From assembly GCA_963677105.1 (NCBI GenBank), contig OY781871.1, forward strand, positions 30,001 to 62,000: a DNA stretch of 32,000 bases, read 5' to 3'. This DNA comes from Candidatus Saccharimonadota bacterium (GTDB lineage: Bacteria > Patescibacteriota > Gracilibacteria > UBA4473). Made by a program: the position numbers and the translations under genes. The notes below the pieces were generated by a model. It had not been told where the DNA came from. It was given only the letters and a program-made list of their open reading frames with translations, and made no database searches. Numbering within the stretch: the stretch's first letter is position 1; every line of letters starts with the position of its first letter. Positions 13,299 through 32,000 of this stretch are shown here, piece after piece.

Positions 13299-14297
13299 AT
13301 GGAATTACCTCCTACTCCTGTTGCATCAGCAGAACCTACTAACGAAAGTGTTCCACCAGCTCCAGCACCTGCTCAAACTAATACCGCTGTTCCAGAAACT
13401 CCTACAGCTCCTGAAGCAGTTCCCGATACGCCACCAGCTTCTGTAAGAACAGGATCTATATTACCTAGATCAAAGCTAACAAAAGAAGACAAGCAAAAAC
13501 TCATTGAAACACAAAAAGAGACACGAGCACGACTTCTGTTGTTAAAAAAGATAGCTACAACTTTTTTAATTGTTTCTCTCGGGTGGTTTTTTTGGCTTCA
13601 AATGAATCTTAGTGAAAACAATTCTGTACTTTCCCTTTTCGGAATAACAGAAAATCTTGGACAAAAAATATCAAATATCAAAAAAAATAAAAAGAAATTT
13701 ACATTAGAAAACGTTACTATTGAAAATAATATTAAAAATTTGCAAAAACAGTTAGAAAGCAAGAATTATACTCGATACTCTAAAGAAATCCGAGATATAC
13801 GGGAAAAACAGCTCCAATGGTATGATGAAATTGATGCTGATGGAAATATTATATTTGGACTTACTGATGCTGTTCCACGTATGCAAGAATTCTTCAATGA
13901 TCGAAATTATAAAGATGAAAACAACATTTTATCTGGAAAACATGGTGATATTCAAATTAAGAACTTACAAGTTTCTCGCGATGGAATAAATTTTTCCGTT
14001 GATGGTTCTCAAATATTGGGAAAAGTATTTTTTCTAAATATTGAATTTGTTGAGATGGTTAACTCTTTCCCTTTCTTGAAAAATGGAAAATTAAATCAAT
14101 TCTCACGTCAAAAAAATAAAGACGATGATGATTCTATGAATTTCAGTGTTAAATTAGAATTACAAGGTCCAGATGAAGTTGATCCTGCTGATAAGCGATT
14201 TCACGAATATTTGGATTGGCTCAATGCTAAATCTGATACCAATATAACAGAAGAAATCGACTCAAAAACTTCTTCTACTCCTGAAATAAACGAATAA
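13299..14297 (+). CDS. Bitopic membrane protein, PilN-like candidate with Pro-rich cytoplasmic N-terminal extension
   Basis: A 50-aa Pro/Thr/Ala-rich N-terminus, then SILPRSKL (reminiscent of the PilN INLLP motif), basic stretch, single TM (IATTFLIVSLGWFFWL), coiled-coil-like segment and an external domain of about 180 aa. First gene of a tightly packed operon ending in pilB/pilC-like genes. Confidence 0.35.
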   Translation: MELPPTPVASAEPTNESVPPAPAPAQTNTAVPETPTAPEAVPDTPPASVRTGSILPRSKLTKEDKQKLIETQKETRARLLLLKKIATTFLIVSLGWFFWLQMNLSENNSVLSLFGITENLGQKISNIKKNKKKFTLENVTIENNIKNLQKQLESKNYTRYSKEIRDIREKQLQWYDEIDADGNIIFGLTDAVPRMQEFFNDRNYKDENNILSGKHGDIQIKNLQVSRDGINFSVDGSQILGKVFFLNIEFVEMVNSFPFLKNGKLNQFSRQKNKDDDDSMNFSVKLELQGPDEVDPADKRFHEYLDWLNAKSDTNITEEIDSKTSSTPEINE

Positions 14298-14299
14298 TT

Positions 14300-14929
14300 A
14301 TGACTTCTAATAAAACTGGCCTCAAAGCATTTCTCCCTACAATAATAGTAATTCTAATTGTTGTAGCATTTAATGTAGCAAAAGTAATCCCCGACACTGT
14401 TCGTTGGATAAATACAAGAAAAGAAGTACAAACTTTGACACAAAAATTAGAAATCATAAAAAAAGAAGTTGAAAAAAATAAAGAAGATGCAGATTCAGCT
14501 CAAGTGCAATTTGATGCGGAATCAAAAAATTATATTCTTGAAGAATCACAATTATTTCCAGAAAAATTCGACCCATACTATGTATCAAAAACACTTGAAT
14601 TATTTTCTATTCAATATTCACTTCTTACTGCAACATCAAGATTGAGAATTGAACGACTTTCTTTTTCAGGTGGAGGAGGGAAAACTGCTGTAATGCTTGA
14701 TATGTCTTGTACAGAAGACACATTAAAAGAAATAATAAAGTATTTTCAATCAGGAGATCTTCCTGAAGCAATGGTTACAAATACAAATCTTGATGCAAAC
14801 GATGTTGAATATTTGCAATCACATAAATTACCAATAGCACATATCGATTCGATTCGTGTTTCAGAAGCAAATGATTCAGAAATATACAAAAAAATATCAC
14901 TCAAAATATCTTTTTTCACGCAAAATTAA
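14300..14929 (+). CDS. Bitopic membrane protein, PilO-like candidate
   Basis: Short N-terminus, single TM (AFLPTIIVILIVVAFNVAKVI), coiled coil (TLTQKLEIIKKEVEKNKEDADSAQ), then an alpha/beta domain of about 120 aa. There is a 2-nt gap to the previous gene and a 3-nt gap to the ATPase gene. Confidence 0.35.
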   Translation: MTSNKTGLKAFLPTIIVILIVVAFNVAKVIPDTVRWINTRKEVQTLTQKLEIIKKEVEKNKEDADSAQVQFDAESKNYILEESQLFPEKFDPYYVSKTLELFSIQYSLLTATSRLRIERLSFSGGGGKTAVMLDMSCTEDTLKEIIKYFQSGDLPEAMVTNTNLDANDVEYLQSHKLPIAHIDSIRVSEANDSEIYKKISLKISFFTQN

Positions 14930-14932
14930 AAA

Positions 14933-16177
14933 ATGGCAGAATATAAGCTCGATACACAAGAACTACAAAACTGTATTGTTTCAGGAAATATTCCTGAACT
15001 TATCGAACGAAGTTTAAAAGTAGCACTGCAATCTGGCGCATCTGACGTCCATATCGAACCAGGGAAAAATATGGTACGAATTCGTATCCGTATTGATGGA
15101 ATATTACAAGTAATAGTTGAATATCCTCTCAATCTTCATTCTGGAGTTATTTCAAAATTGAAGATTATGTCAAACCTAAAAATAGATGAAACACGAGTTC
15201 CTCAAGATGGACGAATTAACACTTTTATTGGAGTAACAGAAGTAGATCTTCGTACATCAACTCTTCCTACGCCAAATGGAGAAAAAGTTGTAATGCGTAT
15301 TTTAGATAAATCAAAAAAGATTCCTACACTTGATCAACTCGGAATTGTTGGACACAATCGTGCGTTGTTCGAAGAAGCAATTTCTGAACCAAACGGAATT
15401 ATTCTTACTTCTGGACCGACAGGATCTGGAAAAACTACAACTATGTATGCAGCAATGCAGGTTTTAAATCAACCAGAAGTAAACATTATGACGTTTGAAG
15501 ATCCAATTGAGAATCAAATGGAAGGGTTAAATCAAAGTCAGGTTCGAGCTGATATTGGATATACGTTTGCAAATGGTCTTCGTACTGCTTTACGACAAGA
15601 TCCCGATATTATCATGGTAGGAGAGATTCGTGATAAAGAAACTATTGATATTGCTATTGAGGCATCTCTTACTGGACACTTAGTATTATCAACTATTCAC
15701 ACGAATTCTGCCATTGAGACGATTACGCGTATTTTGAACATGAAAGTGCCGGACTTCTTATTGACGGCTTCTATAAACTTGATTATGGCACAACGTCTTG
15801 CACGAAGACTTTGTGATAAATGTCGTGTCCCACAACCACTGAGTATGGATGCTCAAAAACAACTTCAAGAAGCATTCGAGTTTTTTGAACCATATGAAGG
15901 ATTTGATATGTCTATATTAAATGAACCAGTTTTTTATGGACCAAGTAAAGCTGGATGTGCTGAATGCCAAGGAAAAGGATATAAAGGCCGTGTTGGATTA
16001 TACGAAGTTCTTCCTTTTTCTGATGAATTAAAGAAAGCTATTCTTGAAGGAACTCCTTCATTTGAATTGAATAAAATGGCACAAAAACAAGGAATGATAA
16101 CTTTAGAACAAGACGGTTTAATAAAAGCAGCACAAGGACTTACTTCTCTTGAAGAAGTATATAAACTCGTTAAATAA
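14933..16177 (+). CDS. pilB: Type IV pilus / type II secretion / competence-pilus assembly ATPase (PilB/GspE/ComGA family), short form without N1 domain
   Basis: Walker A GPTGSGKTT, Asp box, Walker B DPDIIMVGEIRD, His box TGHLVLSTIHTN and the tetracysteine Zn motif CDKC...CAEC typical of extension ATPases. At 414 aa it lacks the long N-terminal domain. Confidence 0.88.
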   Translation: MAEYKLDTQELQNCIVSGNIPELIERSLKVALQSGASDVHIEPGKNMVRIRIRIDGILQVIVEYPLNLHSGVISKLKIMSNLKIDETRVPQDGRINTFIGVTEVDLRTSTLPTPNGEKVVMRILDKSKKIPTLDQLGIVGHNRALFEEAISEPNGIILTSGPTGSGKTTTMYAAMQVLNQPEVNIMTFEDPIENQMEGLNQSQVRADIGYTFANGLRTALRQDPDIIMVGEIRDKETIDIAIEASLTGHLVLSTIHTNSAIETITRILNMKVPDFLLTASINLIMAQRLARRLCDKCRVPQPLSMDAQKQLQEAFEFFEPYEGFDMSILNEPVFYGPSKAGCAECQGKGYKGRVGLYEVLPFSDELKKAILEGTPSFELNKMAQKQGMITLEQDGLIKAAQGLTSLEEVYKLVK

Positions 16178-16179
16178 AT

Positions 16180-17379
16180 ATGAAAATCCCATCTATACCT
16201 TCTGCTCCTGCTGCACCACTTGACAATGGTGACGGAATTTTATTGGATTTGAAACATGAAGAAGTTATTGAAAAAGATAGTATAAAACCTGGAATAAATT
16301 TTGATTTTCTTAATCAACTAAATACATGGATGATTATGAATTCACCTGTTCCACTAAAAGACAAACTTCTTTTCTTTGAGCTTTTAGTTTCAGTTCTTCA
16401 TGCAGGAATTCCCGTCGGAGAAGCGCTTCGATTACTGGAAAAACAAACAAAAAACGAACGAATGAAAATCGTTCTTGGAGAAATGGGAAAAAGCATTAAT
16501 ACAGGATCAAGTCTTGCCGAGTCATTACGTGAGCAATTAGGTGTTTTTGATGAAGCTACTTGTTCTATTGTACAAGCGGGTGAAACTTCAGGAAAATTAA
16601 ATGAAGTGATGAAAGAGTTGGTAGTTCAATATGAACGAATGGATAAAATTCGTAAAAAAGTAAAGGCTGTAATGATGACACCAATTGTCACTATTTCTGT
16701 CATGATTATTGCTGCTGTTGCAGTATTGCTATTTGTTATTCCACAATTAACAGAAATATTCGGTGATGCTGATTTACCACTTCCTACACAAATAATGATT
16801 GCTGCAAGTAATACTTTAATGAAACACTGGCCCATCATTTTTGCTGCTGCTGCTGGAGTAATGGGAGCATTTTCTTATTGGAAAAAAACAAAAACAGGAA
16901 ATCTTCAATGGACTATTATTCGTTTACATATTCCGGTTATTGGAGGATTTATGAAAAAAATGGTTCTCAGTAAAGTTATGCGTATTTTTTCTTTTCTAAT
17001 TGCTTCTGGTGTCCCAATAATTGAAGGATTACGAATTTCTTCTCGTGTAGCAGGAAATGTTGTATATGAAAAAAAATTATTACTTGCTGCAGACGATCTG
17101 ACTCGCGGTATAGAAATTTCCGAAAACTTTTCTGACGATGAAAGTTTATTTCCACAAATGTTAGTAAGCATGATTGCTATTGGAGAAAAAACAGCATCTC
17201 TGGGAAATGTATTAGGAAAAGTTGCTGACTTTTATGATGAAGACTTAGATCGAAGTGTTGGATCATTATCAAAGATGATGGAACCAATAATAATGGTAGT
17301 TATGGCAATCGGTGTTATTTTCCTTTTGATGGCAATTTTCCTTCCAATACTAGGAATGAACGATCATATTATAAGCTAA
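16180..17379 (+). CDS. pilC: Type IV pilus / T2SS platform protein (PilC/GspF/ComGB family)
   Basis: Two GspF-type repeats (FFELLVSVLHAGIPVGEALRLL... and VMRIFSFLIASGVPIIEGLRIS...) and three TM segments. Confidence 0.88.
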   Translation: MKIPSIPSAPAAPLDNGDGILLDLKHEEVIEKDSIKPGINFDFLNQLNTWMIMNSPVPLKDKLLFFELLVSVLHAGIPVGEALRLLEKQTKNERMKIVLGEMGKSINTGSSLAESLREQLGVFDEATCSIVQAGETSGKLNEVMKELVVQYERMDKIRKKVKAVMMTPIVTISVMIIAAVAVLLFVIPQLTEIFGDADLPLPTQIMIAASNTLMKHWPIIFAAAAGVMGAFSYWKKTKTGNLQWTIIRLHIPVIGGFMKKMVLSKVMRIFSFLIASGVPIIEGLRISSRVAGNVVYEKKLLLAADDLTRGIEISENFSDDESLFPQMLVSMIAIGEKTASLGNVLGKVADFYDEDLDRSVGSLSKMMEPIIMVVMAIGVIFLLMAIFLPILGMNDHIIS

Positions 17380-25185: not shown

Positions 25186-25494
25186 CTACGCTAACAATGA
25201 CAACAATTGTTCTTCTGTTTGCATTCCTACTGCTTCATTTGCAACTTCTCCATTTTTAAAAACTTTAAATGCTGGAATAGACATAACTCCATATTCTGAA
25301 GAAACTTCTGGAGCTTGATCGACATCTATTTTTACTACTTTCGCTCCATCTGGAAGCTTTTTTTCTAAGTTTTCAAGCACTGGCATCATTCCCTGACATG
25401 GTCCACACCAAGTAGCAAAAAAATCAACAAGAACTGGACCTGAAGCTTTTAAAACTTCTGTTTCGAAATCGGTTGCGGTAATTTGATGTACCAT
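25186..25494 (-). CDS. trxA: Thioredoxin
   Basis: 102 aa with the canonical active site WCGPC and cis-Pro context MSIPAF. Confidence 0.93.
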   Translation of the reverse strand: MVHQITATDFETEVLKASGPVLVDFFATWCGPCQGMMPVLENLEKKLPDGAKVVKIDVDQAPEVSSEYGVMSIPAFKVFKNGEVANEAVGMQTEEQLLSLLA

Positions 25495-25563: not shown

Positions 25564-26160
25564 CTACGCTTCGGAATTATTACTTAAAATTTTCAAAAAA
25601 TTACGACATTCTCGTGCTTGATCTGAATTGGGCGCGAGTTCAATAACACGACGAAATGATTTTTGCGCTCGCTCATGTTGCTCTGAATTCATATAACAAA
25701 CTCCCAAGTCACATAAAATGTTTGGATCATTTGGAGAAAGGTTTTTTGATCGTTCCAATAAAGCTAATCCCTGAACAGATTTTCTATTTTGATTGTGATA
25801 TCCCCATCCTAAACAACGTAAAATCTCAGGATGATTTGGCGATTGATTATCCGCTACTTGCAGTTCTTTCACACTGGCTGTCCATTTTTGTTGCTGAGAA
25901 AAAAGAAATCCCAATAAGTAATGTGCATTCGCAGATTTTGGAGAAAGACGAATCGCTTCACGAAGCGCTTTTTCAGCCTTTTCAAAAGATTTCATAGAAA
26001 GAAAATTATCTCCCAATTCCTCATATGCTTCAAAACATTGCGGATAACTTAAAATTATCTTCTCAAGTAATTTAATCGCTGTATCAAAATCTCCCGCAAG
26101 TTTTGCGTCCTCTGATTGTGCAAGCATATCGATAACAAATTGATCATATTCCATCAACAC
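25564..26160 (-). CDS. Tetratricopeptide-repeat (TPR) protein, no signal peptide
   Basis: Repeated 34-aa A/Y/L patterns (e.g. AYEELGDNFLSMKSFEKAEKALREAIRLSPKSANAHYLLGFLF..., LRCLGWGYHNQNR..., LCDLGVCYMNSEQHERAQKSFRRVIELAPNS). GTG at 26160 or ATG at 26154. The start lies 9-15 nt downstream of the giant ORF stop. Confidence 0.8.
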   Translation of the reverse strand: MLMEYDQFVIDMLAQSEDAKLAGDFDTAIKLLEKIILSYPQCFEAYEELGDNFLSMKSFEKAEKALREAIRLSPKSANAHYLLGFLFSQQQKWTASVKELQVADNQSPNHPEILRCLGWGYHNQNRKSVQGLALLERSKNLSPNDPNILCDLGVCYMNSEQHERAQKSFRRVIELAPNSDQARECRNFLKILSNNSEA

Positions 26161-26169
26161 ATTATATCG

Positions 26170-29100
26170 TTAAAACGCTTTTTTTTCAAGCTTTGTATCG
26201 GGATTTTGCAAAACCTCTTTTGTTTCGTCAACTCTTTCTGTGATTTTAATCTTTCGTGGAACAGGATGTGAAAATTGTGCCAATAATATCTTATTTCGCC
26301 ATATTTCAAATACGACTGGAGCCGTGTCGTCCACTGACACTTGTGTCTGTAAATAAATGTCTGGAACGAGAGACTTAAATTGTCCCCAAGAATCTATTGT
26401 TCCTAAAACTTGTTGTTTCTCTTCGTCCCAAAGTTCTGATATTCCATCCACTCCTTTCCTCCATAAAATTGAATCTTTTTTAGCATCTGCAAGTTGAACT
26501 TCTGTTTTAGAAACTTTTGTGTCCAATAACTTTTCTTGTTTTGGTAAAACAAATGTTGATTGTTCCGGTGCAACAAATATAAGTTTTGCTGCTTCCTCCC
26601 CTGTATTTTCACGTAAGGAAATATTTAAACTTTTTTCATCAGTAGCAGTTTGTACTGTTTGTGTTAATTTTTCATCCAGTAAAACTGGCCTCCCTGTTTC
26701 TAACACTTCTGCACGAGATTTTTTTGTATATTTATCTCGTAACACAGCTCCACCTGTACGTGAAAGATTTTCTAAAACAAATGATCCATTCTCTTCAGAG
26801 GTAGCAGTTCTTGATAAAATTTCTTTCCGTCCGTCTCTCTCTCGAATAAACCAAACCTCTATTCCTTCTTCACCAGAAATAACATTTCCTGATACACGTA
26901 AATCACGGACACTCGCTTCACGAAGTTCTAACTCCGGCGCTTTTACGGTTATTGTAATTGATAAAACTGATTCATTTCCCGACACATCTGTCACATGTAA
27001 CACTACAGGAACAACTCCAACATGATGTTCCGCTGGAAGTAAAATCTTCAGTAATTCTTGTGGGGAATTTTCGTTCGATTGAGAATCAATCATTGTTTCT
27101 CCTCTTACTTCCCACCACACACGCTCAATTTCTTGATTATCTCGTGATCCTGATGCATCCAATTCTATTTTTTGTCCTAATAAAACAGATCGTTCTGTTC
27201 CTCGACGCAATTCTAAACGAGGCGCTTCTACATCATCTCCAGATTGTGGATCATGAAGAAGGTTTTTCGATCGAGTCCAACTTTTATTTTCTTTGTCAAA
27301 CGCTATTAATTGTCCGTAATAATTTCCACGAGAAAGTTGTTTAAACGATGAGATAAGATCTTTTCGAGAATTAAATTGGTGTAATTCATATTGTTCCCCT
27401 CCCCACAATGTGATATTTGTATCATCAAATAAATCTAATTCCACTTTATCATTTGTTCCTAATTCCAAACGCATGCCAGAAAAGAAATAATCTTTTTTCT
27501 TTGGAATAAGCCTCTTTTCGTTCGCAAATTCAAGGTATTGCACATCTCCACGAGACAAACAAACTTCTGCAAAATCAACAACTGTTTCTTCTCCTTTTCG
27601 GAGTTCAATTTCTCGCTCTTCCGCAACCTGCCCCTTTCTCGCCAATGTTTTTACTAATAAACGAGATTTTTCTGCTTTCCCAACAAAAATTGTTTCTTCT
27701 GCAAAAAATGGCAGTTGTGTGTCGCCATCATCGCATTGTGCAGCACTAAATTTTTCTATTGTTTTTAATGGAGAACCATACATTACCGGTGATCCTGTTA
27801 CAGATTTTATTTGTGCCCCTGCTGAACGAATTTCATATTTTGTCATAGGGGGACGAACTAAAAATCCGATTCGACGCCATATTTTTGATTTTCGTTTTGA
27901 AGCAGGTACTGCTGATTCAAAAATACGATCTGGACGTTCGGAAAGAATCCATTCAAAATATGCCGTATCATTTGTATCTGCTGGTAAAAAACGAAGCATT
28001 GAACCATCTGCAGAAACTGATGAAGTTACTGTTTCACTTGGAGTAAATCCATTGGCAAATCTTGAAAGATCCCATTCTAAAAGTTTTTGGGGAACTTCAA
28101 AATCATCATCTTCTTCCTCTGGTAGAACACGACGTTTTATAAATAATTGTGTATCAATCGCATACAACATTTCGTCGACTCCATCACTATCCAAATCTAC
28201 TCGAGATGAAGTAAAACGACGTCCTTGCAACGGGAAGTTCGTAACTGTATTTGTCTTATTTTCTGCTGAATCAAACCATAATATTCTCGGTTCAACTTGC
28301 ATTTCACCCTGTGGATCAGGCACGGAATCCATATTGTAATTCATTGGCACACTCTGTGGATAATCTTCAATTGAAAGTATTTTTGGCTCTGTGGAAACTT
28401 GCCAAGACCGCATATGTGCAGGAACTATTCCGCTTTCTAATGCAAATGTTTTAATCGGTTCCATATCAATTTCTAATTCTTCTTCAGAAAAAACATTTCC
28501 TTCTGGCAGTAATGCTATTGTTTTTGTTGCACTTGAATTTTGTGCTAACGACATTGGTTCCATTGGTAATGGAAAACACGCTGAATCTGTTATTATTCCT
28601 TTCGAAAGATTACTTAATTGTGTCGTAATACAATTAAACATTGCGGCAGAAGCTTCTAATAGTGCTACTAATGATGGTAATCCTTGTGCAAATTCCCATT
28701 GCAACTTAAATGATAACGGAGGTAATATTAATTTCGGTATTGGTGGTAATTTTGCTAAAAAATCTAATGGCAATAATAATGTTCTATTTGTTGCATTTAC
28801 AACAGACATTGCAACCATCCACTCTGGAACTGGAACAAGCCCCTGACAAATAAGCGACAATAATCCCAAAATGTATTTTGGTACTATCATGATAAGATTT
28901 GGAACTTTTAGAAAATCTGGAAAAACCGGAGGTTCAATAAGTGATGGTAATTGAGGTAAAACCATTGGAGGCATCACAAGCGCAACGTCTGGTAATATTG
29001 GTGCTTTGGGCAATACTGGCAAAACAGGAATCAATGCAATTATCGTTTCCAATAAATTTGTTAACGTATCTAAAGATGCTAGCACATCTGGGATTTCTGG

Positions 29101-32000
29101 GATTTCGGGGATATTTGCTAATAATGCTAATAACCCTTCTAATGAAATATTTCCGGCAAAAATTTCTGCCAATAATCCATTTAACATTCCTTCTAGGGAA
29201 GAAGCCGTATTCAATGAATCCCATAGAGCTTGTAATATCCCAGCAAAAATTCCTTCAAATTTTTCACTCAATTCTAACTCTGGTAACGGCGGAATAAGTC
29301 CACTCGCAGAAACTTCTACTTTATTAAATTCTAATTCCGGAACTTCTAATTTTAATCCAAGCTTCAAAGCAGATAAGTCCACTTCCACATCAGGAACTTG
29401 TGGCATTGGAATGATCGGGAATTTCACAAGAGACAAAAGAATATTCTTGAGCCATGCAATCATAGATCCTCTCGACATAGATCCTCCATTTGCACTAGTA
29501 GTTGCTTTTGAGAATTTTTTTAACATTTCAGGAATTTCTGTCCAAGCCTTAATAGTCTTTTTCGTTTCTTCAACAAATTCCTCCCATTTCTCTACTGCAC
29601 GCTCATTTCGATTAATCCATTCTACCCAGTACTCATTAATGACTTCCGTCATCTTTTTTATATCTTTGTATAAAGCTTTGAGTTTCTTTGGAATCTTTTT
29701 CAGTTTTTTAATTTCTTTCACATATGACTCCAATGCTTCAATGTTTTTTTCTACCGAAGTCACAAACTCTTCCCACTTCTTTTCAAGTGGTTCAATGGTT
29801 AATTCTTTAAATTTTTCTTTTAAATCATCTTTCAATCCCTTTAAGAGTTCTCTCATTTTCTCTTCTTGTTCTGCTGCAGCTTCATCTAATGCAGCTTGAC
29901 GTTCCGCCTTTGCTGCTTCTGCTTGAGCCTTTAATTCAGCTTTTTTAGATTCAGCTGCATTTTCTACATCTGTCGAATCTGAAGCATTTTCTCCTGGTGG
30001 AATTTTTGAATTCAAAATTGCGAGAATTACTTTCCCATCTCGAATTGCCAACACATCCATTTCGTTTGCCGTGTTTTTCAATGTGTCAACATCTCCCTGT
30101 AAATCGGCATAAAACTCCTGTTGTTTTTTCAATACATCATTAAATTTTTGAGTTAAAAAAGCTTTTGCTTCTTGGTTTTTTTGTTCAGTAATTCCTGTTT
30201 TTATTTCTTCAAGAGCAGCTAAGCTTCTCTTTAGTTCTTCCAAATTGTCCTCTCCAATTGCAATAACACCTGCTTGTTTTTCTATTTCAGGGTTTTCAGC
30301 ACTTTCCCTCATTCTAGCAGTGGCCTTTTCTACTTCAGAATTCCATTGATTTGGAGTTGGATCTGTTAATGAATCTACTCGTTCTATTTCATCTGTCATA
30401 TAAGACTGAAGCGATTCATATTTTAACTTTATCAATGTTCTTCCCAATGTTGCTGGCAACGATTTTATTCTTAATATTGTTCCCATTGAATTATTCAATG
30501 AAAGTCGGATAACTAATCCTATTGCTGTCGCAGTGTTTGTGTTAGCAGTACATTCCTCTGTTGATTTATTCCATGTTCCATTTTCCAAACAATTACATCC
30601 TAATTCCATCCATTTCATCTTCTCTTTATGCAACTTCTCTTTTGCGTCTTTTTTCCATTTTTTTAATTCTTCTTTGAGACGCTCAAATTGTCCATCCGGA
30701 AAATAAGGATAATTTATGGTTATCTTTTTTCTTTTTACATCAACAAATGGAGATTTATTTAGACACGATAATGTTGGTTCTCCCTCCTCACACGGGATCG
30801 ATTTAAATTTTGGAAATTTTATTTTGAATTTTGGAAATTTGAAATTCGTAAATTCTCTCCACTGATCTTGCACCCATTGACTCAATATATCTGCCGCTTT
30901 TATTTGACTATTCGTTGGTAAACTTTTTCCTTTAATAATAATTGGAAGTCCTGATTGAAATGTAATTCCACTTCCTGAAGGCGCAAAGAGTTGTTGTAAA
31001 AATTCTTGTGCTGGTGTTGCTTCATTTGCTGGTTCTAAATCAGTACATGAAGTTTGTGTATCTTCCGATGATGATCCTGATTCAGAATTTCCTCCAGCAG
31101 ATGCTCCTCCACTACCAGAAGAAAATTGTGGAATAATCACAAAACATTGAGGAGGAAATGGAATTCCTGTTGGAGACATTGAAGGATCAATAACTGGTCC
31201 TCCACAAATTGCTATTCCTACTTGTAATGACGTCGTTGGAATAATATATAATCGAAATAATGAAGTTGGCATTGGACCTGCTCCCACTGGAGGAAGTTGC
31301 GGAGCTACCCAAAAAATCGGAAATCCAATCGCTGGAACAGGAATTGGTATTGCATATGGTGGGATATAAATACTTTGTGGTCCTGGAGCAAGAAACGCCA
31401 CTGATGGAATTGCATCCAACCAAGATGCTACTTTTTTAGCACCTCCCAACATGTTTAAAAGTGCTTCACCCACGGATGGTATAGCAAACATTATTGGTAA
31501 TCCATCATCTGTTTGTTCTGTACCTAAACAATCCAAAACATCATCGGCCGTTGCTTCTGCATCAAAATCTGATGGCAACAAATCAGGAAATACCTTTTTT
31601 GTTTCACGACTACTCATTCTTAAATATGGAGATGTCGGAGCATCTTTTACTGCGTCTGAACTTCTAGCAGGAACCGTTCCATTATTTTCCCCTGAAATAA
31701 ATTGTATTGTTTCAGCTGTTCCATCTGAATGCCATGCAACGGCTACATCATCTCGTGCATCATTTTTTTCAAAATCACTTACAAAATATCGTATCGGAAG
31801 AACTTCTTCCGCTATAGAATCCCAGTTAAAAACAATATTCGCATGAGCCGGAATATTTCCAATCGTAATTTGTATCACTTTCGGCAAAACTTTTATTTCG
31901 GGCAAAGTTTCACAAGAATCACATACAAATGAAGTTTCATCAAACTGAAATCCTACCGATTTAGGAAGAACAAACTCTCCTTCAGAATACGCTTGCTGAT
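26170..32000 (-). CDS. Giant multidomain protein of unknown function, partial (N-terminus outside window; at least 1,942 codons in window)
   Basis: Single open minus-strand frame from TAA (26170-26172) to the window edge. The track start at 31905 is a TTG, and the 31 codons upstream (..QQAYSEGEFVLPKSVGFQFDETSFVCDSCET) contain no stop. Recognisable pieces are a PKD-like domain (26938-27228), a carboxypeptidase-regulatory-like beta domain (26761-26928), an FG-GAP-like Ca loop (28156-28203) and a K/E coiled coil (29506-30423). Confidence 0.85.
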   Translation of the reverse strand, partial: QQAYSEGEFVLPKSVGFQFDETSFVCDSCETLPEIKVLPKVIQITIGNIPAHANIVFNWDSIAEEVLPIRYFVSDFEKNDARDDVAVAWHSDGTAETIQFISGENNGTVPARSSDAVKDAPTSPYLRMSSRETKKVFPDLLPSDFDAEATADDVLDCLGTEQTDDGLPIMFAIPSVGEALLNMLGGAKKVASWLDAIPSVAFLAPGPQSIYIPPYAIPIPVPAIGFPIFWVAPQLPPVGAGPMPTSLFRLYIIPTTSLQVGIAICGGPVIDPSMSPTGIPFPPQCFVIIPQFSSGSGGASAGGNSESGSSSEDTQTSCTDLEPANEATPAQEFLQQLFAPSGSGITFQSGLPIIIKGKSLPTNSQIKAADILSQWVQDQWREFTNFKFPKFKIKFPKFKSIPCEEGEPTLSCLNKSPFVDVKRKKITINYPYFPDGQFERLKEELKKWKKDAKEKLHKEKMKWMELGCNCLENGTWNKSTEECTANTNTATAIGLVIRLSLNNSMGTILRIKSLPATLGRTLIKLKYESLQSYMTDEIERVDSLTDPTPNQWNSEVEKATARMRESAENPEIEKQAGVIAIGEDNLEELKRSLAALEEIKTGITEQKNQEAKAFLTQKFNDVLKKQQEFYADLQGDVDTLKNTANEMDVLAIRDGKVILAILNSKIPPGENASDSTDVENAAESKKAELKAQAEAAKAERQAALDEAAAEQEEKMRELLKGLKDDLKEKFKELTIEPLEKKWEEFVTSVEKNIEALESYVKEIKKLKKIPKKLKALYKDIKKMTEVINEYWVEWINRNERAVEKWEEFVEETKKTIKAWTEIPEMLKKFSKATTSANGGSMSRGSMIAWLKNILLSLVKFPIIPMPQVPDVEVDLSALKLGLKLEVPELEFNKVEVSASGLIPPLPELELSEKFEGIFAGILQALWDSLNTASSLEGMLNGLLAEIFAGNISLEGLLALLANIPEIPEIPDVLASLDTLTNLLETIIALIPVLPVLPKAPILPDVALVMPPMVLPQLPSLIEPPVFPDFLKVPNLIMIVPKYILGLLSLICQGLVPVPEWMVAMSVVNATNRTLLLPLDFLAKLPPIPKLILPPLSFKLQWEFAQGLPSLVALLEASAAMFNCITTQLSNLSKGIITDSACFPLPMEPMSLAQNSSATKTIALLPEGNVFSEEELEIDMEPIKTFALESGIVPAHMRSWQVSTEPKILSIEDYPQSVPMNYNMDSVPDPQGEMQVEPRILWFDSAENKTNTVTNFPLQGRRFTSSRVDLDSDGVDEMLYAIDTQLFIKRRVLPEEEDDDFEVPQKLLEWDLSRFANGFTPSETVTSSVSADGSMLRFLPADTNDTAYFEWILSERPDRIFESAVPASKRKSKIWRRIGFLVRPPMTKYEIRSAGAQIKSVTGSPVMYGSPLKTIEKFSAAQCDDGDTQLPFFAEETIFVGKAEKSRLLVKTLARKGQVAEEREIELRKGEETVVDFAEVCLSRGDVQYLEFANEKRLIPKKKDYFFSGMRLELGTNDKVELDLFDDTNITLWGGEQYELHQFNSRKDLISSFKQLSRGNYYGQLIAFDKENKSWTRSKNLLHDPQSGDDVEAPRLELRRGTERSVLLGQKIELDASGSRDNQEIERVWWEVRGETMIDSQSNENSPQELLKILLPAEHHVGVVPVVLHVTDVSGNESVLSITITVKAPELELREASVRDLRVSGNVISGEEGIEVWFIRERDGRKEILSRTATSEENGSFVLENLSRTGGAVLRDKYTKKSRAEVLETGRPVLLDEKLTQTVQTATDEKSLNISLRENTGEEAAKLIFVAPEQSTFVLPKQEKLLDTKVSKTEVQLADAKKDSILWRKGVDGISELWDEEKQQVLGTIDSWGQFKSLVPDIYLQTQVSVDDTAPVVFEIWRNKILLAQFSHPVPRKIKITERVDETKEVLQNPDTKLEKKAF
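30802..30843 (-). repeat. Short tandem coding repeat FKFPKFK-I-KFPKFK inside the giant ORF
   Basis: Minus strand reads TTC AAA TTT CCA AAA TTC AAA ATA AAA TTT CCA AAA TTT AAA. At DNA level the unit AAATTTCCAAAATT occurs twice. Confidence 0.9.

Follow-up and report, generated by a model that had tools for sequence, protein, structure and literature searches.

We describe a proline-rich hydrophobic module in a giant protein whose gene runs into one end of a 32,000-nucleotide stretch of contig OY781871.1 from a Candidatus Saccharimonadota bacterium, hereafter the window. Judged from its alignment with distant homologues, the module is a conserved, single-copy and so far undescribed domain in which the prolines are the best-conserved residues. 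We regard it as a new domain family, with an inferred function, in proteins of a class already known: giant surface proteins made by Candidate Phyla Radiation (CPR) bacteria. We prefer, at a probability of about one half, to read the four proline tracts of the module as polyproline-II (PPII) straps with an ordered structure, which form part of a composite structural hub (α/β/PPII) within the giant surface protein.

The proline-rich segment lies on the minus strand (nt 29463-28561) and corresponds to residues 815-1115 of a large open reading frame (ORF) at 26170-31905. The plus-strand translation of nt 28561-29463 is riddled with stop codons. Residues are numbered throughout from nt 31905 of the minus strand, which is residue 1. 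The frame is open from nt 31998 to its stop at 26170 and includes 31 codons at 31906-31998 without a stop. Thus, the gene is cut by the window edge, and residue 1 does not mark its real beginning; the TTG at nt 31905 counts as a start only through an artefact of the ORF listing. The full-length protein probably has about 3,900-4,000 residues; the signal peptide and the rest of the first ~2,000 residues fall beyond the window edge on the side of 31906-32000. The C-terminus reads ...NPDTKLEKKAF, and neither an LPXTG motif nor a hydrophobic tail was found there. An alternative genetic code was considered and is unneeded, since all ORFs are intact under table 11 and TGA ends four of 29 ORFs.

Composition and periodicity of the segment

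Leucine and proline make up 21% and 12% of the segment, compared with 10.7% and 6.6% of the whole in-window protein. Twelve proline pairs are spaced three residues apart, compared with 4.1 ± 1.8 in shuffled sequences (z = 4.4). None of the 5,000 shuffles reached 12 such pairs, and enrichment was seen at no other spacing. In addition, 29 of the 36 prolines in the segment are preceded by I, L, V, M or F. The preliminary description of this DNA had reported a hydrophobic, proline-periodic segment; that segment is real and non-random, and all six peptides quoted from it were found where they had been placed. Its statement that the segment differs from ordinary transmembrane (TM) helices also holds. 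We assessed TM character by Kyte-Doolittle (KD) windows. The best 19-residue windows of the segment score 1.62-1.80 and four of the five contain prolines; the remaining one (911-929) sits in a variable insert (residues 880-954, described below) and holds two Glu. No proline-free stretch of at least 19 residues in the segment reaches KD 1.8. Three of 68 homologues attain a 19-residue KD value of at least 2.0, and the equivalent helices bear K, R or N at i/i+3-4 spacing. A canonical TM helix or membrane anchor was rejected because of these window scores, with their prolines, and because the hydrophobic stretch is not conserved in the homologues.

Internal repeats, for which the preliminary description had proposed a test, did not emerge. 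The two best self-diagonal scores were 40 and 34, compared with 30 ± 3.4 and a maximum of 38 for shuffles, and a tandem-repeat architecture was rejected because the scores are at the shuffle maximum.

Conserved blocks and variable insert

Homologues were collected by an exhaustive phmmer search with residues 780-1911 against 1.84 billion representative proteins (cut-off E ≤ 1e-3). The search matched 154 proteins, 37 of them at E ≤ 1e-30, and residues 1161-1911 were the best-matching stretch in most matches. Orthologous loci were sought in one genome per GTDB species and two were obtained, L001 in Ca. Gracilibacteria bacterium M50B91 (61% identity) and L002 in an uncultured Ca. Peribacteria metagenome-assembled genome (58%). 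The complete orthologue in L002 has 3,935 residues, and the orthologue P0001 (50% identity) has 3,982.

A local phmmer search with residues 780-1130 was run against 150 of the 154 retrieved proteins. Of the 150 proteins listed, 108 match the module in one or more stretches at E < 1e-3, mostly as two stretches and in single copy. These stretches correspond to query residues ~782-879 (block A) and ~934-1109 (block B). Alignment A1 contains 27 module sequences with identity down to 22%, and column statistics were taken from 69 aligned members. Proline accounts for 23 of the 40 columns that are conserved at 75% or more in the 69 members. The invariant columns of A1 are P830, P835, P838, D843, S845, P856, P972, P979, P987, P996 and E1028, and the near-invariant ones are R812, I832, P875, P963, L986, P993, T1039, R1041, D1048 and P1057. 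The full-length alignments A4 and A5 agree with this conservation pattern.

Block A comprises, in order, a helix, R812, a helix at 815-825, FPIIPMPQVPD, amphipathic β-strands with D843 and S845, P856 and IPPLPELEL. Residues R812, P830, P835, P838, D843, S845, P856, P872 and P875 are invariant or nearly so, and the signature of the block is W..IP.IF..F..C..C...RG(S/T)..WL..LL....LPVIP.PK.PDI..D.S.I..G.....P.I.F.P....LP.LP. Block B comprises two (hydrophobic-Pro-x)n tracts, an amphipathic helix at 1000-1023, PVPEW, a helix at 1028-1039, TNR, LDF, two strands and a helix at 1077-1101. Its conserved residues are P960, P963, P966, P969, P979, P984, L986, P987, P992, P993 and P996 in the first half and P1025, P1027, E1028, T1039, R1041, D1048 and P1057 in the second, and its signature is IP.LP.LP.LP ... 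LP.LP.LP.PP.IP..L.......I.K....L.CL...G..PVPEW.LK..IE.LTNR..L..DF.

Residues 880-954 are gapped in most homologues and vary in length and sequence. This insert holds IPEIPEIPD, which is encoded by atc ccc gaa atc cca gaa atc cca gat, and the adjoining LALLA, which is a second 9-nt duplicate. The Leu-rich stretch GMLNGLL...LLALLAN is likewise in this poorly conserved insert. Judged from its coding sequence, IPEIPEIPD is a young tandem repeat, and together with the Leu-rich helices it is a lineage-specific decoration. The motifs that the preliminary description had put forward as typical are thus of two kinds: IPVLPVLPKAPILPDV, MPPMVLPQLPSLIEPPVFPDF, LPPIPKLILPPLSF and IPPLPELEL fall within the conserved blocks, whereas IPEIPEIPD and the Leu-rich stretch belong to the lineage-specific insert.

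Identity, the proportion of nonsynonymous differences (pN) and the Nei-Gojobori ratio of nonsynonymous to synonymous substitution rates (dN/dS) were computed against the L002 orthologue; dS was saturated, so the ratios are relative only. The dN/dS ratio is ~0.19-0.20 for block B and for N2, a second proline-rich hydrophobic block upstream (residues 151-262), and ~0.55-0.58 for the insert 880-954 and the coiled coil that precedes the module (coiled coil ~0.58). Blocks A and B have ratios of ~0.2-0.26 and align column by column in more than 100 proteins, with identity down to 22-27%. By these relative measures, block B is under purifying selection, and N2 equals it as the most conserved part of the in-window protein.

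Three cysteine columns in the family deserve a separate remark. Columns 802, 808 and 1017 hold cysteine in 62 of the 69 members each and hold T, G and S in the window protein (nt ~29500-29502, 29482-29484 and 28855-28857); the cysteines are also absent in P0001 and in the L002 orthologue. The pair before R812 is of the CxxC type and the third cysteine lies in helix 1000-1023. Their joint loss suggests that the three act together, as a disulfide or a metal site.

Period-3 proline tracts

Four proline tracts were defined within the module (Table 1). Conserved prolines at spacing 3 occur at 960, 963, 966 and 969 in tract 3, and tract 4 has prolines at the same spacing at 984, 987, (990), 993 and 996. 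Among the 69 members, PxxP is found in the module at 3.3 times the expectation, compared with 1.5 times in the rest of the same proteins, and 71% of the module prolines follow a hydrophobic residue, compared with 41% elsewhere in these proteins. The pattern hydrophobic-Pro-x-hydrophobic-Pro occurs 8.8 times per sequence. The hydrophobic position of the tracts is Leu in 58% and Ile in 20%, and the x position is polar or charged in 76%, chiefly D, K and E. In 57 of the 69 members, period-3 proline runs reach a maximum of 5-8, compared with 2-3 in most shuffles. Conservation of the periodicity had been set beforehand as a test on which the preliminary description should stand or fall, and the periodicity is kept in the 69 aligned homologues.

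A PPII helix has three residues per turn, with backbone angles of about -75°/+145°. The mean family hydrophobic moment of the four tracts is 1.0-1.5 at 120°, 0.4-0.85 at 100° and 0.4-0.6 at 170°. With a moment peak at 120° and a period of three, the tracts therefore carry the sequence signature of amphipathic PPII helices, and we infer that each tract is such a helix, with one face of Leu/Ile and Pro and a polar stripe. In the stretch that separates tracts 1 and 2, hydrophobic residues alternate with charged ones across the family, a pattern suggestive of amphipathic strands. The family's helices carry charges every 3-4 residues and are amphipathic, not TM-like.

Searches for known domains

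Pfam-A gave nothing significant for the query, the 27 module sequences or the full-length homologues, and PHROGs and NCBIfam gave nothing significant for the window protein. Among PDB sequences, which were searched with phmmer and with the A1 profile, the best matches were designed coiled coils (E = 0.0014-0.03) and covered the last helix only. A Foldseek search of the predicted model of residues 1-1160 against PDB also gave nothing (best E = 6). These searches agree with the preliminary description, which knew of no described domain of this kind. A leucine-rich repeat was considered and rejected because no LxxLxLxxN profile matched: Pfam gave no such match, YopM appeared in the PDB search at E = 1.4 and internal repeats were not above shuffles. 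For the C-terminal region (residues 1161-1911), there was no Pfam or PDB sequence match.

Structure prediction

AlphaFold was run on the module alone (351 residues, 27-sequence alignment) and on residues 1-1160 (32-sequence alignment A5). The module alone had a mean predicted local distance difference test (pLDDT) score of 61 and a predicted template modelling (pTM) score of 0.22, with nine helices and with the proline tracts non-regular at pLDDT ~42-58. Residues 1-1160 had a mean pLDDT of 60.5 and a pTM of 0.38, and in this context the tracts rose to pLDDT 69-84. Tract 1 changed from ~50-70 alone to 74-81 in context, tract 2 from <50 to ~78-82, tract 3 from 52-58 to 69-79 and tract 4 from 52-71 to 77-83; residues 821-880 as a whole reached 74-84 and residues 951-1000 reached 69-83. 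Strands were predicted at 840-843 and 848-864 (block A, pLDDT ~80 in context) and at 1064-1067 and 1071-1075. The upstream conserved block N3 (residues ~340-450 in the model) was predicted at pLDDT 80-90 with strands at 360-363 and 388-401, and helices ~700-806 had pLDDT 82-90 over most of the stretch. The insert was modelled as helices 880-900, 905-916, 922-931 and 939-957, with pLDDT ~50-65 for 891-950. Residues 139-213, within or near N2, had no confident model.

In the homologues P0004 and P0005, residues ~436-705 are replaced by about 25 residues that join N3 to the equivalent of query helices 706-800. The gain in pLDDT in context and this juxtaposition of N3 and the helices in compact homologues together suggest that N3, helices 706-806 and blocks A and B would form one composite domain. 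The preliminary description had pictured the module directly behind a long coiled coil; this layout is not a family feature, since the region 436-705 is an insertion. In the model of the window protein, that region contains long helices at 552-620 and 647-735 around a low-confidence loop (621-646), which could be a helical hairpin excursion. The idea of a hydrophobic PPII-type rod fared differently in its two parts. The PPII pattern is retained, with period-3 runs of 5-8, a polar x position and a moment peak at 120°, but a free-standing rod is not, since the tracts alone have pLDDT ~42-58.

The hydrophobicity that first drew attention to the segment is not a family trait. Block B of the window has a KD value of 1.14, the highest of the 69, compared with a family mean of 0.30 ± 0.22, and charged residues make up 10% of it, compared with 18% in the family. 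On this comparison of sequences, both the long coiled coil and the extreme KD value of block B are lineage-specific.

Interpretation and alternatives

If the tracts are ordered PPII straps, as we favour, they would cross the hydrophobic faces of two kinds of neighbour, amphipathic helices and a small sheet partly built from N3 (~331-435) and helices 706-806. Straps, helices and sheet together would make a rigid α/β/PPII hub that joins the variable, presumably adhesive N-terminal portion with its immunoglobulin (Ig)-like/FG-GAP-like parts and, in the window lineage, the inserted helical hairpin to the conserved C-terminal 750 residues. The role would be architectural. The hub would hold or position a long cell-surface fibre for contact with other cells and would not span a membrane.

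Several points weigh against this reading. The PPII geometry and the contacts of straps with helices rest on the sequence pattern, the DSSP state 'other' and pLDDT, and the models are moderate (mean pLDDT ~61, pTM 0.22/0.38, alignments of 27 and 32 sequences). The rise in pLDDT could be partly due to the different alignment and not to real contacts. In addition, an architectural role is a default reading, and the invariant residues R812, D843, S845, E1028, T1039, R1041 and D1048 could be a binding or catalytic site. Finally, the protein has no recognisable cell anchor (no LPXTG, no TM), which leaves room for anchoring by the hydrophobic blocks.

Such anchoring is part of an alternative that we regard as possible, if unlikely, in which the amphipathic helices, the proline tracts and the block 151-262 embed interfacially in a membrane. 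The target could be the membrane of the producer, for retention after signal-peptide cleavage, or the membrane of a host cell during episymbiotic attachment. High hydrophobicity and low charge in block B of the window (KD 1.14, 10% charged) fit this picture, but the family mean of 0.30 with 18% charged residues implies that high hydrophobicity is not a conserved property, and the segment offers no proline-free stretch of at least 19 residues at KD 1.8. The in-window protein is most conserved in two regions, each of them proline-rich and hydrophobic, and residues 160-213 are nearly uncharged and have no AlphaFold model; however, the homologue helices bear K, R and N on one face, the x position of the tracts is charged or polar in 76%, and AlphaFold gives the tracts an ordered context once the soluble neighbouring parts are present. 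Membrane embedding would also account for proteins whose signal peptides look cleavable and which have no LPXTG, C-terminal TM segment or other anchor. Related CPR giant surface proteins are proposed for host attachment (PMC8080830, PMC4736985). The membrane-inserting role for the module that was floated in the preliminary description gains no direct support from our results.

Assembly or partner binding appears decidedly unlikely. Here exposed PPII tracts and helices would serve in homo-oligomerisation into fibres or in PxxP-type docking to an envelope or host protein. The pattern hydrophobic-Pro-x-hydrophobic-Pro is a generic PPII ligand core, as in SH3, WW and EVH1 ligands, and the tracts match it. 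PPII segments often serve in protein-protein contacts (PMC3707005). Segments that fold upon binding typically show the low pTM and poor confidence obtained for the module by itself, and the adjoining long helices could oligomerise; however, the tracts gain confidence in a monomer model with intramolecular neighbours. Furthermore, the prolines are positionally invariant, together with the buried-type residues L986, I832 and W788, in very distant homologues, which marks a fold more than it does linear motifs. No conserved partner gene accompanies the giant gene, as the tetratricopeptide repeat (TPR)/thioredoxin synteny described below is limited to close orthologues; in addition, the TPR protein lacks a signal peptide.

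A drifting low-complexity linker, that is, a compositionally biased spacer without specific structure, is scarcely credible for the module as a whole. It describes the insert 880-954, which varies in length and sequence and holds the young 9-nt tandem repeat of IPEIPEIPD and the 9-nt duplicate of LALLA, and it also fits internal-repeat scores that stay at the level of shuffles. Blocks A and B refute it by their column-wise alignment, their invariant prolines and dN/dS ratios of ~0.2-0.26. A bolder and distinctly improbable proposal is that the module and its sister block 151-262 constitute a new extracellular fold in which amphipathic (Leu/Ile-Pro-x)n PPII straps are core elements and not linkers. 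In a widespread family of CPR giants, this fold would grip or insert into a membrane, either the host membrane in episymbiosis or the envelope of the producing bacterium, where it would replace a classical anchor, and the window lineage would stand at the hydrophobic extreme.

Comparison with known systems

The closest parallel to PPII straps on helices is the stalk of streptococcal antigen I/II (SpaP/P1, SspB, BspC), whose Ala-rich A region is α-helical and pairs with a Pro-rich P region that adopts a PPII helix (PMC6586375). Both are bacterial surface proteins with period-3 proline tracts beside long amphipathic helices. The principle is likely common, a PPII strand that packs its proline/hydrophobic face on a helix, although for the module it is read from the sequence pattern. 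There is no sequence relationship between the two (no Pfam match). The tracts of the module are short (12-22 residues), four in number and set amid strands and helices, in contrast to the one long two-stranded stalk of antigen I/II. The module also lacks A or P tandem repeats, an intervening V domain and LPXTG, unlike antigen I/II.

In the PP-fold of pancreatic polypeptide and NPY, a eukaryotic hormone fold of 36 residues, a PPII helix of the type PxxPxxP turns back onto an amphipathic α-helix. At the level of sequence pattern and predicted helices, the module looks alike where tract 978-999 leads into helix 1000-1023 and where helix 939-957 leads into tract 958-972; there is no homology to the module (no Pfam match). 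Maize γ-zein, with (VHLPPP)8, and TonB, with EP/KP, provide amphipathic PPII repeats or rigid Pro-rich spacers, which are tandem, low-complexity and fast-evolving. They share with the 120° moment of the module a three-residue periodicity with a hydrophobic and a polar face. Unlike in these repeats, the prolines of the module are individually conserved in a non-repetitive sequence.

Giant proteins have been described in the same lineage group. In the portions that treat them, PMC4736985 gives large extracellular proteins of 1,219-3,861 residues for Ca. Peribacter riflensis, and PMC8080830 gives giant surface proteins of up to 4,163 residues for Vampirococcus lugosii. Compared by these descriptions only, the homologues match them in size, signal peptide and weak FG-GAP/Ig-like signals. 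The proteins are characterised there by known adhesion domains, and the module is unmentioned in those descriptions (PMC4736985, PMC8080830).

CPR bacteria, tiny symbionts, depend on cell contact, and giant surface proteins are prime candidates for it that are annotated merely as 'hypothetical'. A conserved C-terminal half is common to more than 100 of these giants, and its most conserved pieces are two proline-rich hydrophobic blocks. The signature LPVIPxPKxPD...DxS, (LPx)n-PPxIP, PVPEW and TNR makes a concrete new family definable. A fold with period-3 prolines as its best-conserved residues would be an unusual case of PPII as core structural elements. If the architectural reading is true, the module amounts to a newly recognised domain of unknown function, useful but ordinary.

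Coordinates of the module and neighbouring regions

Table 1. Features of the giant protein within the window; identity and pN refer to the comparison with the L002 orthologue, and moments are hydrophobic moments.
Feature	Position (nt)	Strand	Residues	Properties
3' part of giant gene	26170-32000	-		1,942 codons; open frame to window edge; full length judged from orthologue lengths
N2, second proline-rich hydrophobic block	31120-31455	-	151-262	71% identity; lowest pN, 0.179
N3, upstream conserved block	30601-30915	-	331-435	conserved family-wide; putative packing partner of the module
Coiled-coil insertion	29791-30600	-	436-705	most of the long helical region; 30% identity
Conserved helix or helices directly before module	29488-29790	-	706-806	conserved as query 705-800
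Proline-rich hydrophobic module	28561-29463	-	815-1115	L 21%, P 12%; Pro-Pro spacing 3, z = 4.4
Conserved block A	29269-29562	-	782-879	aligned in >100 homologues
Block A, part		-	815-879	55% identity
Proline tract 1	29389-29430	-	826-839	LVKFPIIPMPQVPD; moment 1.13 at 120°, 0.65 at 100°, 0.52 at 170°
Proline tract 2	29269-29313	-	865-879	..GLIPPLPELEL; moment 1.01 at 120°
Variable lineage-specific insert	29044-29268	-	880-954	four predicted helices and IPEIPEIPD; 36% identity; pN 0.465, highest of the listed module regions
9-nt DNA tandem repeat encoding IPEIPEIPD	29087-29112	-		Tandem Repeats Finder: period 9, 2.9 copies, 94% matches
Conserved block B	28576-29043	-	955-1110	
Block B core		-	955-1060	71% identity (71-74% to orthologues); pN 0.222, among the lowest
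Proline tract 3	28990-29034	-	958-972	LIPVLPVLPKAPILP; moment 1.47 at 120°
Proline tract 4	28909-28974	-	978-999	MPPMVLPQLPSLIEPPVFPDFL; moment 1.19 at 120°
PVPEW motif	28819-28833	-	1025-1029	E1028 in 68 of 69 sequences
TNR motif	28783-28791	-	1039-1041	T1039 in 66 of 69, R1041 in 57 of 69
C-terminal region	26173-28425	-	1161-1911	hydrophilic, conserved; 64% identity

Other regions of the giant proteins

Most homologues are secreted giants of 3,400-5,800 residues, and the query aligns to their C-terminal parts. Those named so far are from Gracilibacteria and Peribacteria, both of which belong to the CPR. Their source annotations are 'hypothetical protein', save one generic 'uncharacterized repeat protein'. 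Nearly all full-length homologues have an N-terminal signal peptide that ends in an AxA-type site; for example, the L002 orthologue starts with MPRAIRKSFKNWMSFLLIFCVLSPSISSALA|AP. Beyond this signal peptide, no consistent TM-like segment was found across the full-length homologues. Pfam gave sub-threshold signals only for full-length members, with FG-GAP_3 at 26.2 bits (cutoff 26.9) and weak matches to Big_1 and Invasin_D3 below threshold.

In many members an aromatic motif, A|(L/F)F(D/x)(F/x)F, directly follows the signal-peptidase site. Examples are EA|LFRVFDIF, QA|FFDFFDD and EA|FFDFFN, and the carriers include P0004, P0005, P0008, P0011, P0014, P0025, P0028 and others. This motif may be a sorting or assembly signal. 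The N-terminal ~750 residues of the giants, which lie outside the window, form a conserved domain with the motifs RYAxDxQ, GxxPLPVVxK, PYxDF, ExWHGVI and FDxNH in the A3/A4 consensus, for which no Pfam family matched. Downstream of this domain, DxNxD-type FG-GAP-like repeats come after an LFAAGN...LGDP motif.

Within the window, N2 has 22 prolines in 112 residues and is almost uncharged (AFLAPGPQSIYIPPYAIPIPVPAIGFPIFWVAPQLPPVGAGPMP...), with one charged residue in all at 160-213, and it is conserved family-wide with several cysteines. Short DNA tandem repeats with periods of 7 and 15 at 30802-30854 (residues ~352-369) encode FKFPKFKIKFPKFK at the start of N3. The C-terminal region contains the consensus motifs DASxSxD...DGDxxND...LxVxDxxGN and TDxxGxF (A3/A4) at residues ~1570-1720. 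These may resemble PKD-like or carboxypeptidase-regulatory-like β-sandwich domains, for which Pfam gave no match.

Genomic context

The window is a segment of a bacterial chromosome with 35% GC and includes genes for ribosomal proteins L11 and L1, NusG, DnaX, MurB, MurG, FtsW and PurD. It also encodes PilB/PilC-type T2SSE and T2SSF proteins, a DUF5671 match, a TPR protein and a thioredoxin. An RNA explanation was set aside, since the window contains no tRNA or Rfam features. The genomic background is that of the CPR, as indicated by the closest loci (L001, L002), the GC content and the pilus, DUF5671 and mur/ftsW genes.

The TPR protein (198 residues, 25564-26160, minus strand) begins 10 nt after the stop of the giant gene and has no signal peptide. 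The thioredoxin gene (25186-25494, minus strand) follows it. The same pair also follows the L002 orthologue and an ORF of similar size is present in L001, but the pair is absent at the P0005 locus (L003). A conserved partner gene was therefore rejected, as this synteny is found in close orthologues only. The two proteins could assist the giant precursor in the cytoplasm, as a pair with chaperone and redox functions. Lastly, in the region 13299-17379 (plus strand), two ORFs of 332 and 209 residues without a significant family match lie directly upstream of the PilB-like and PilC-like genes. The region, which probably represents a type IV pilus cluster, is separated from the giant gene by ~9 kb.

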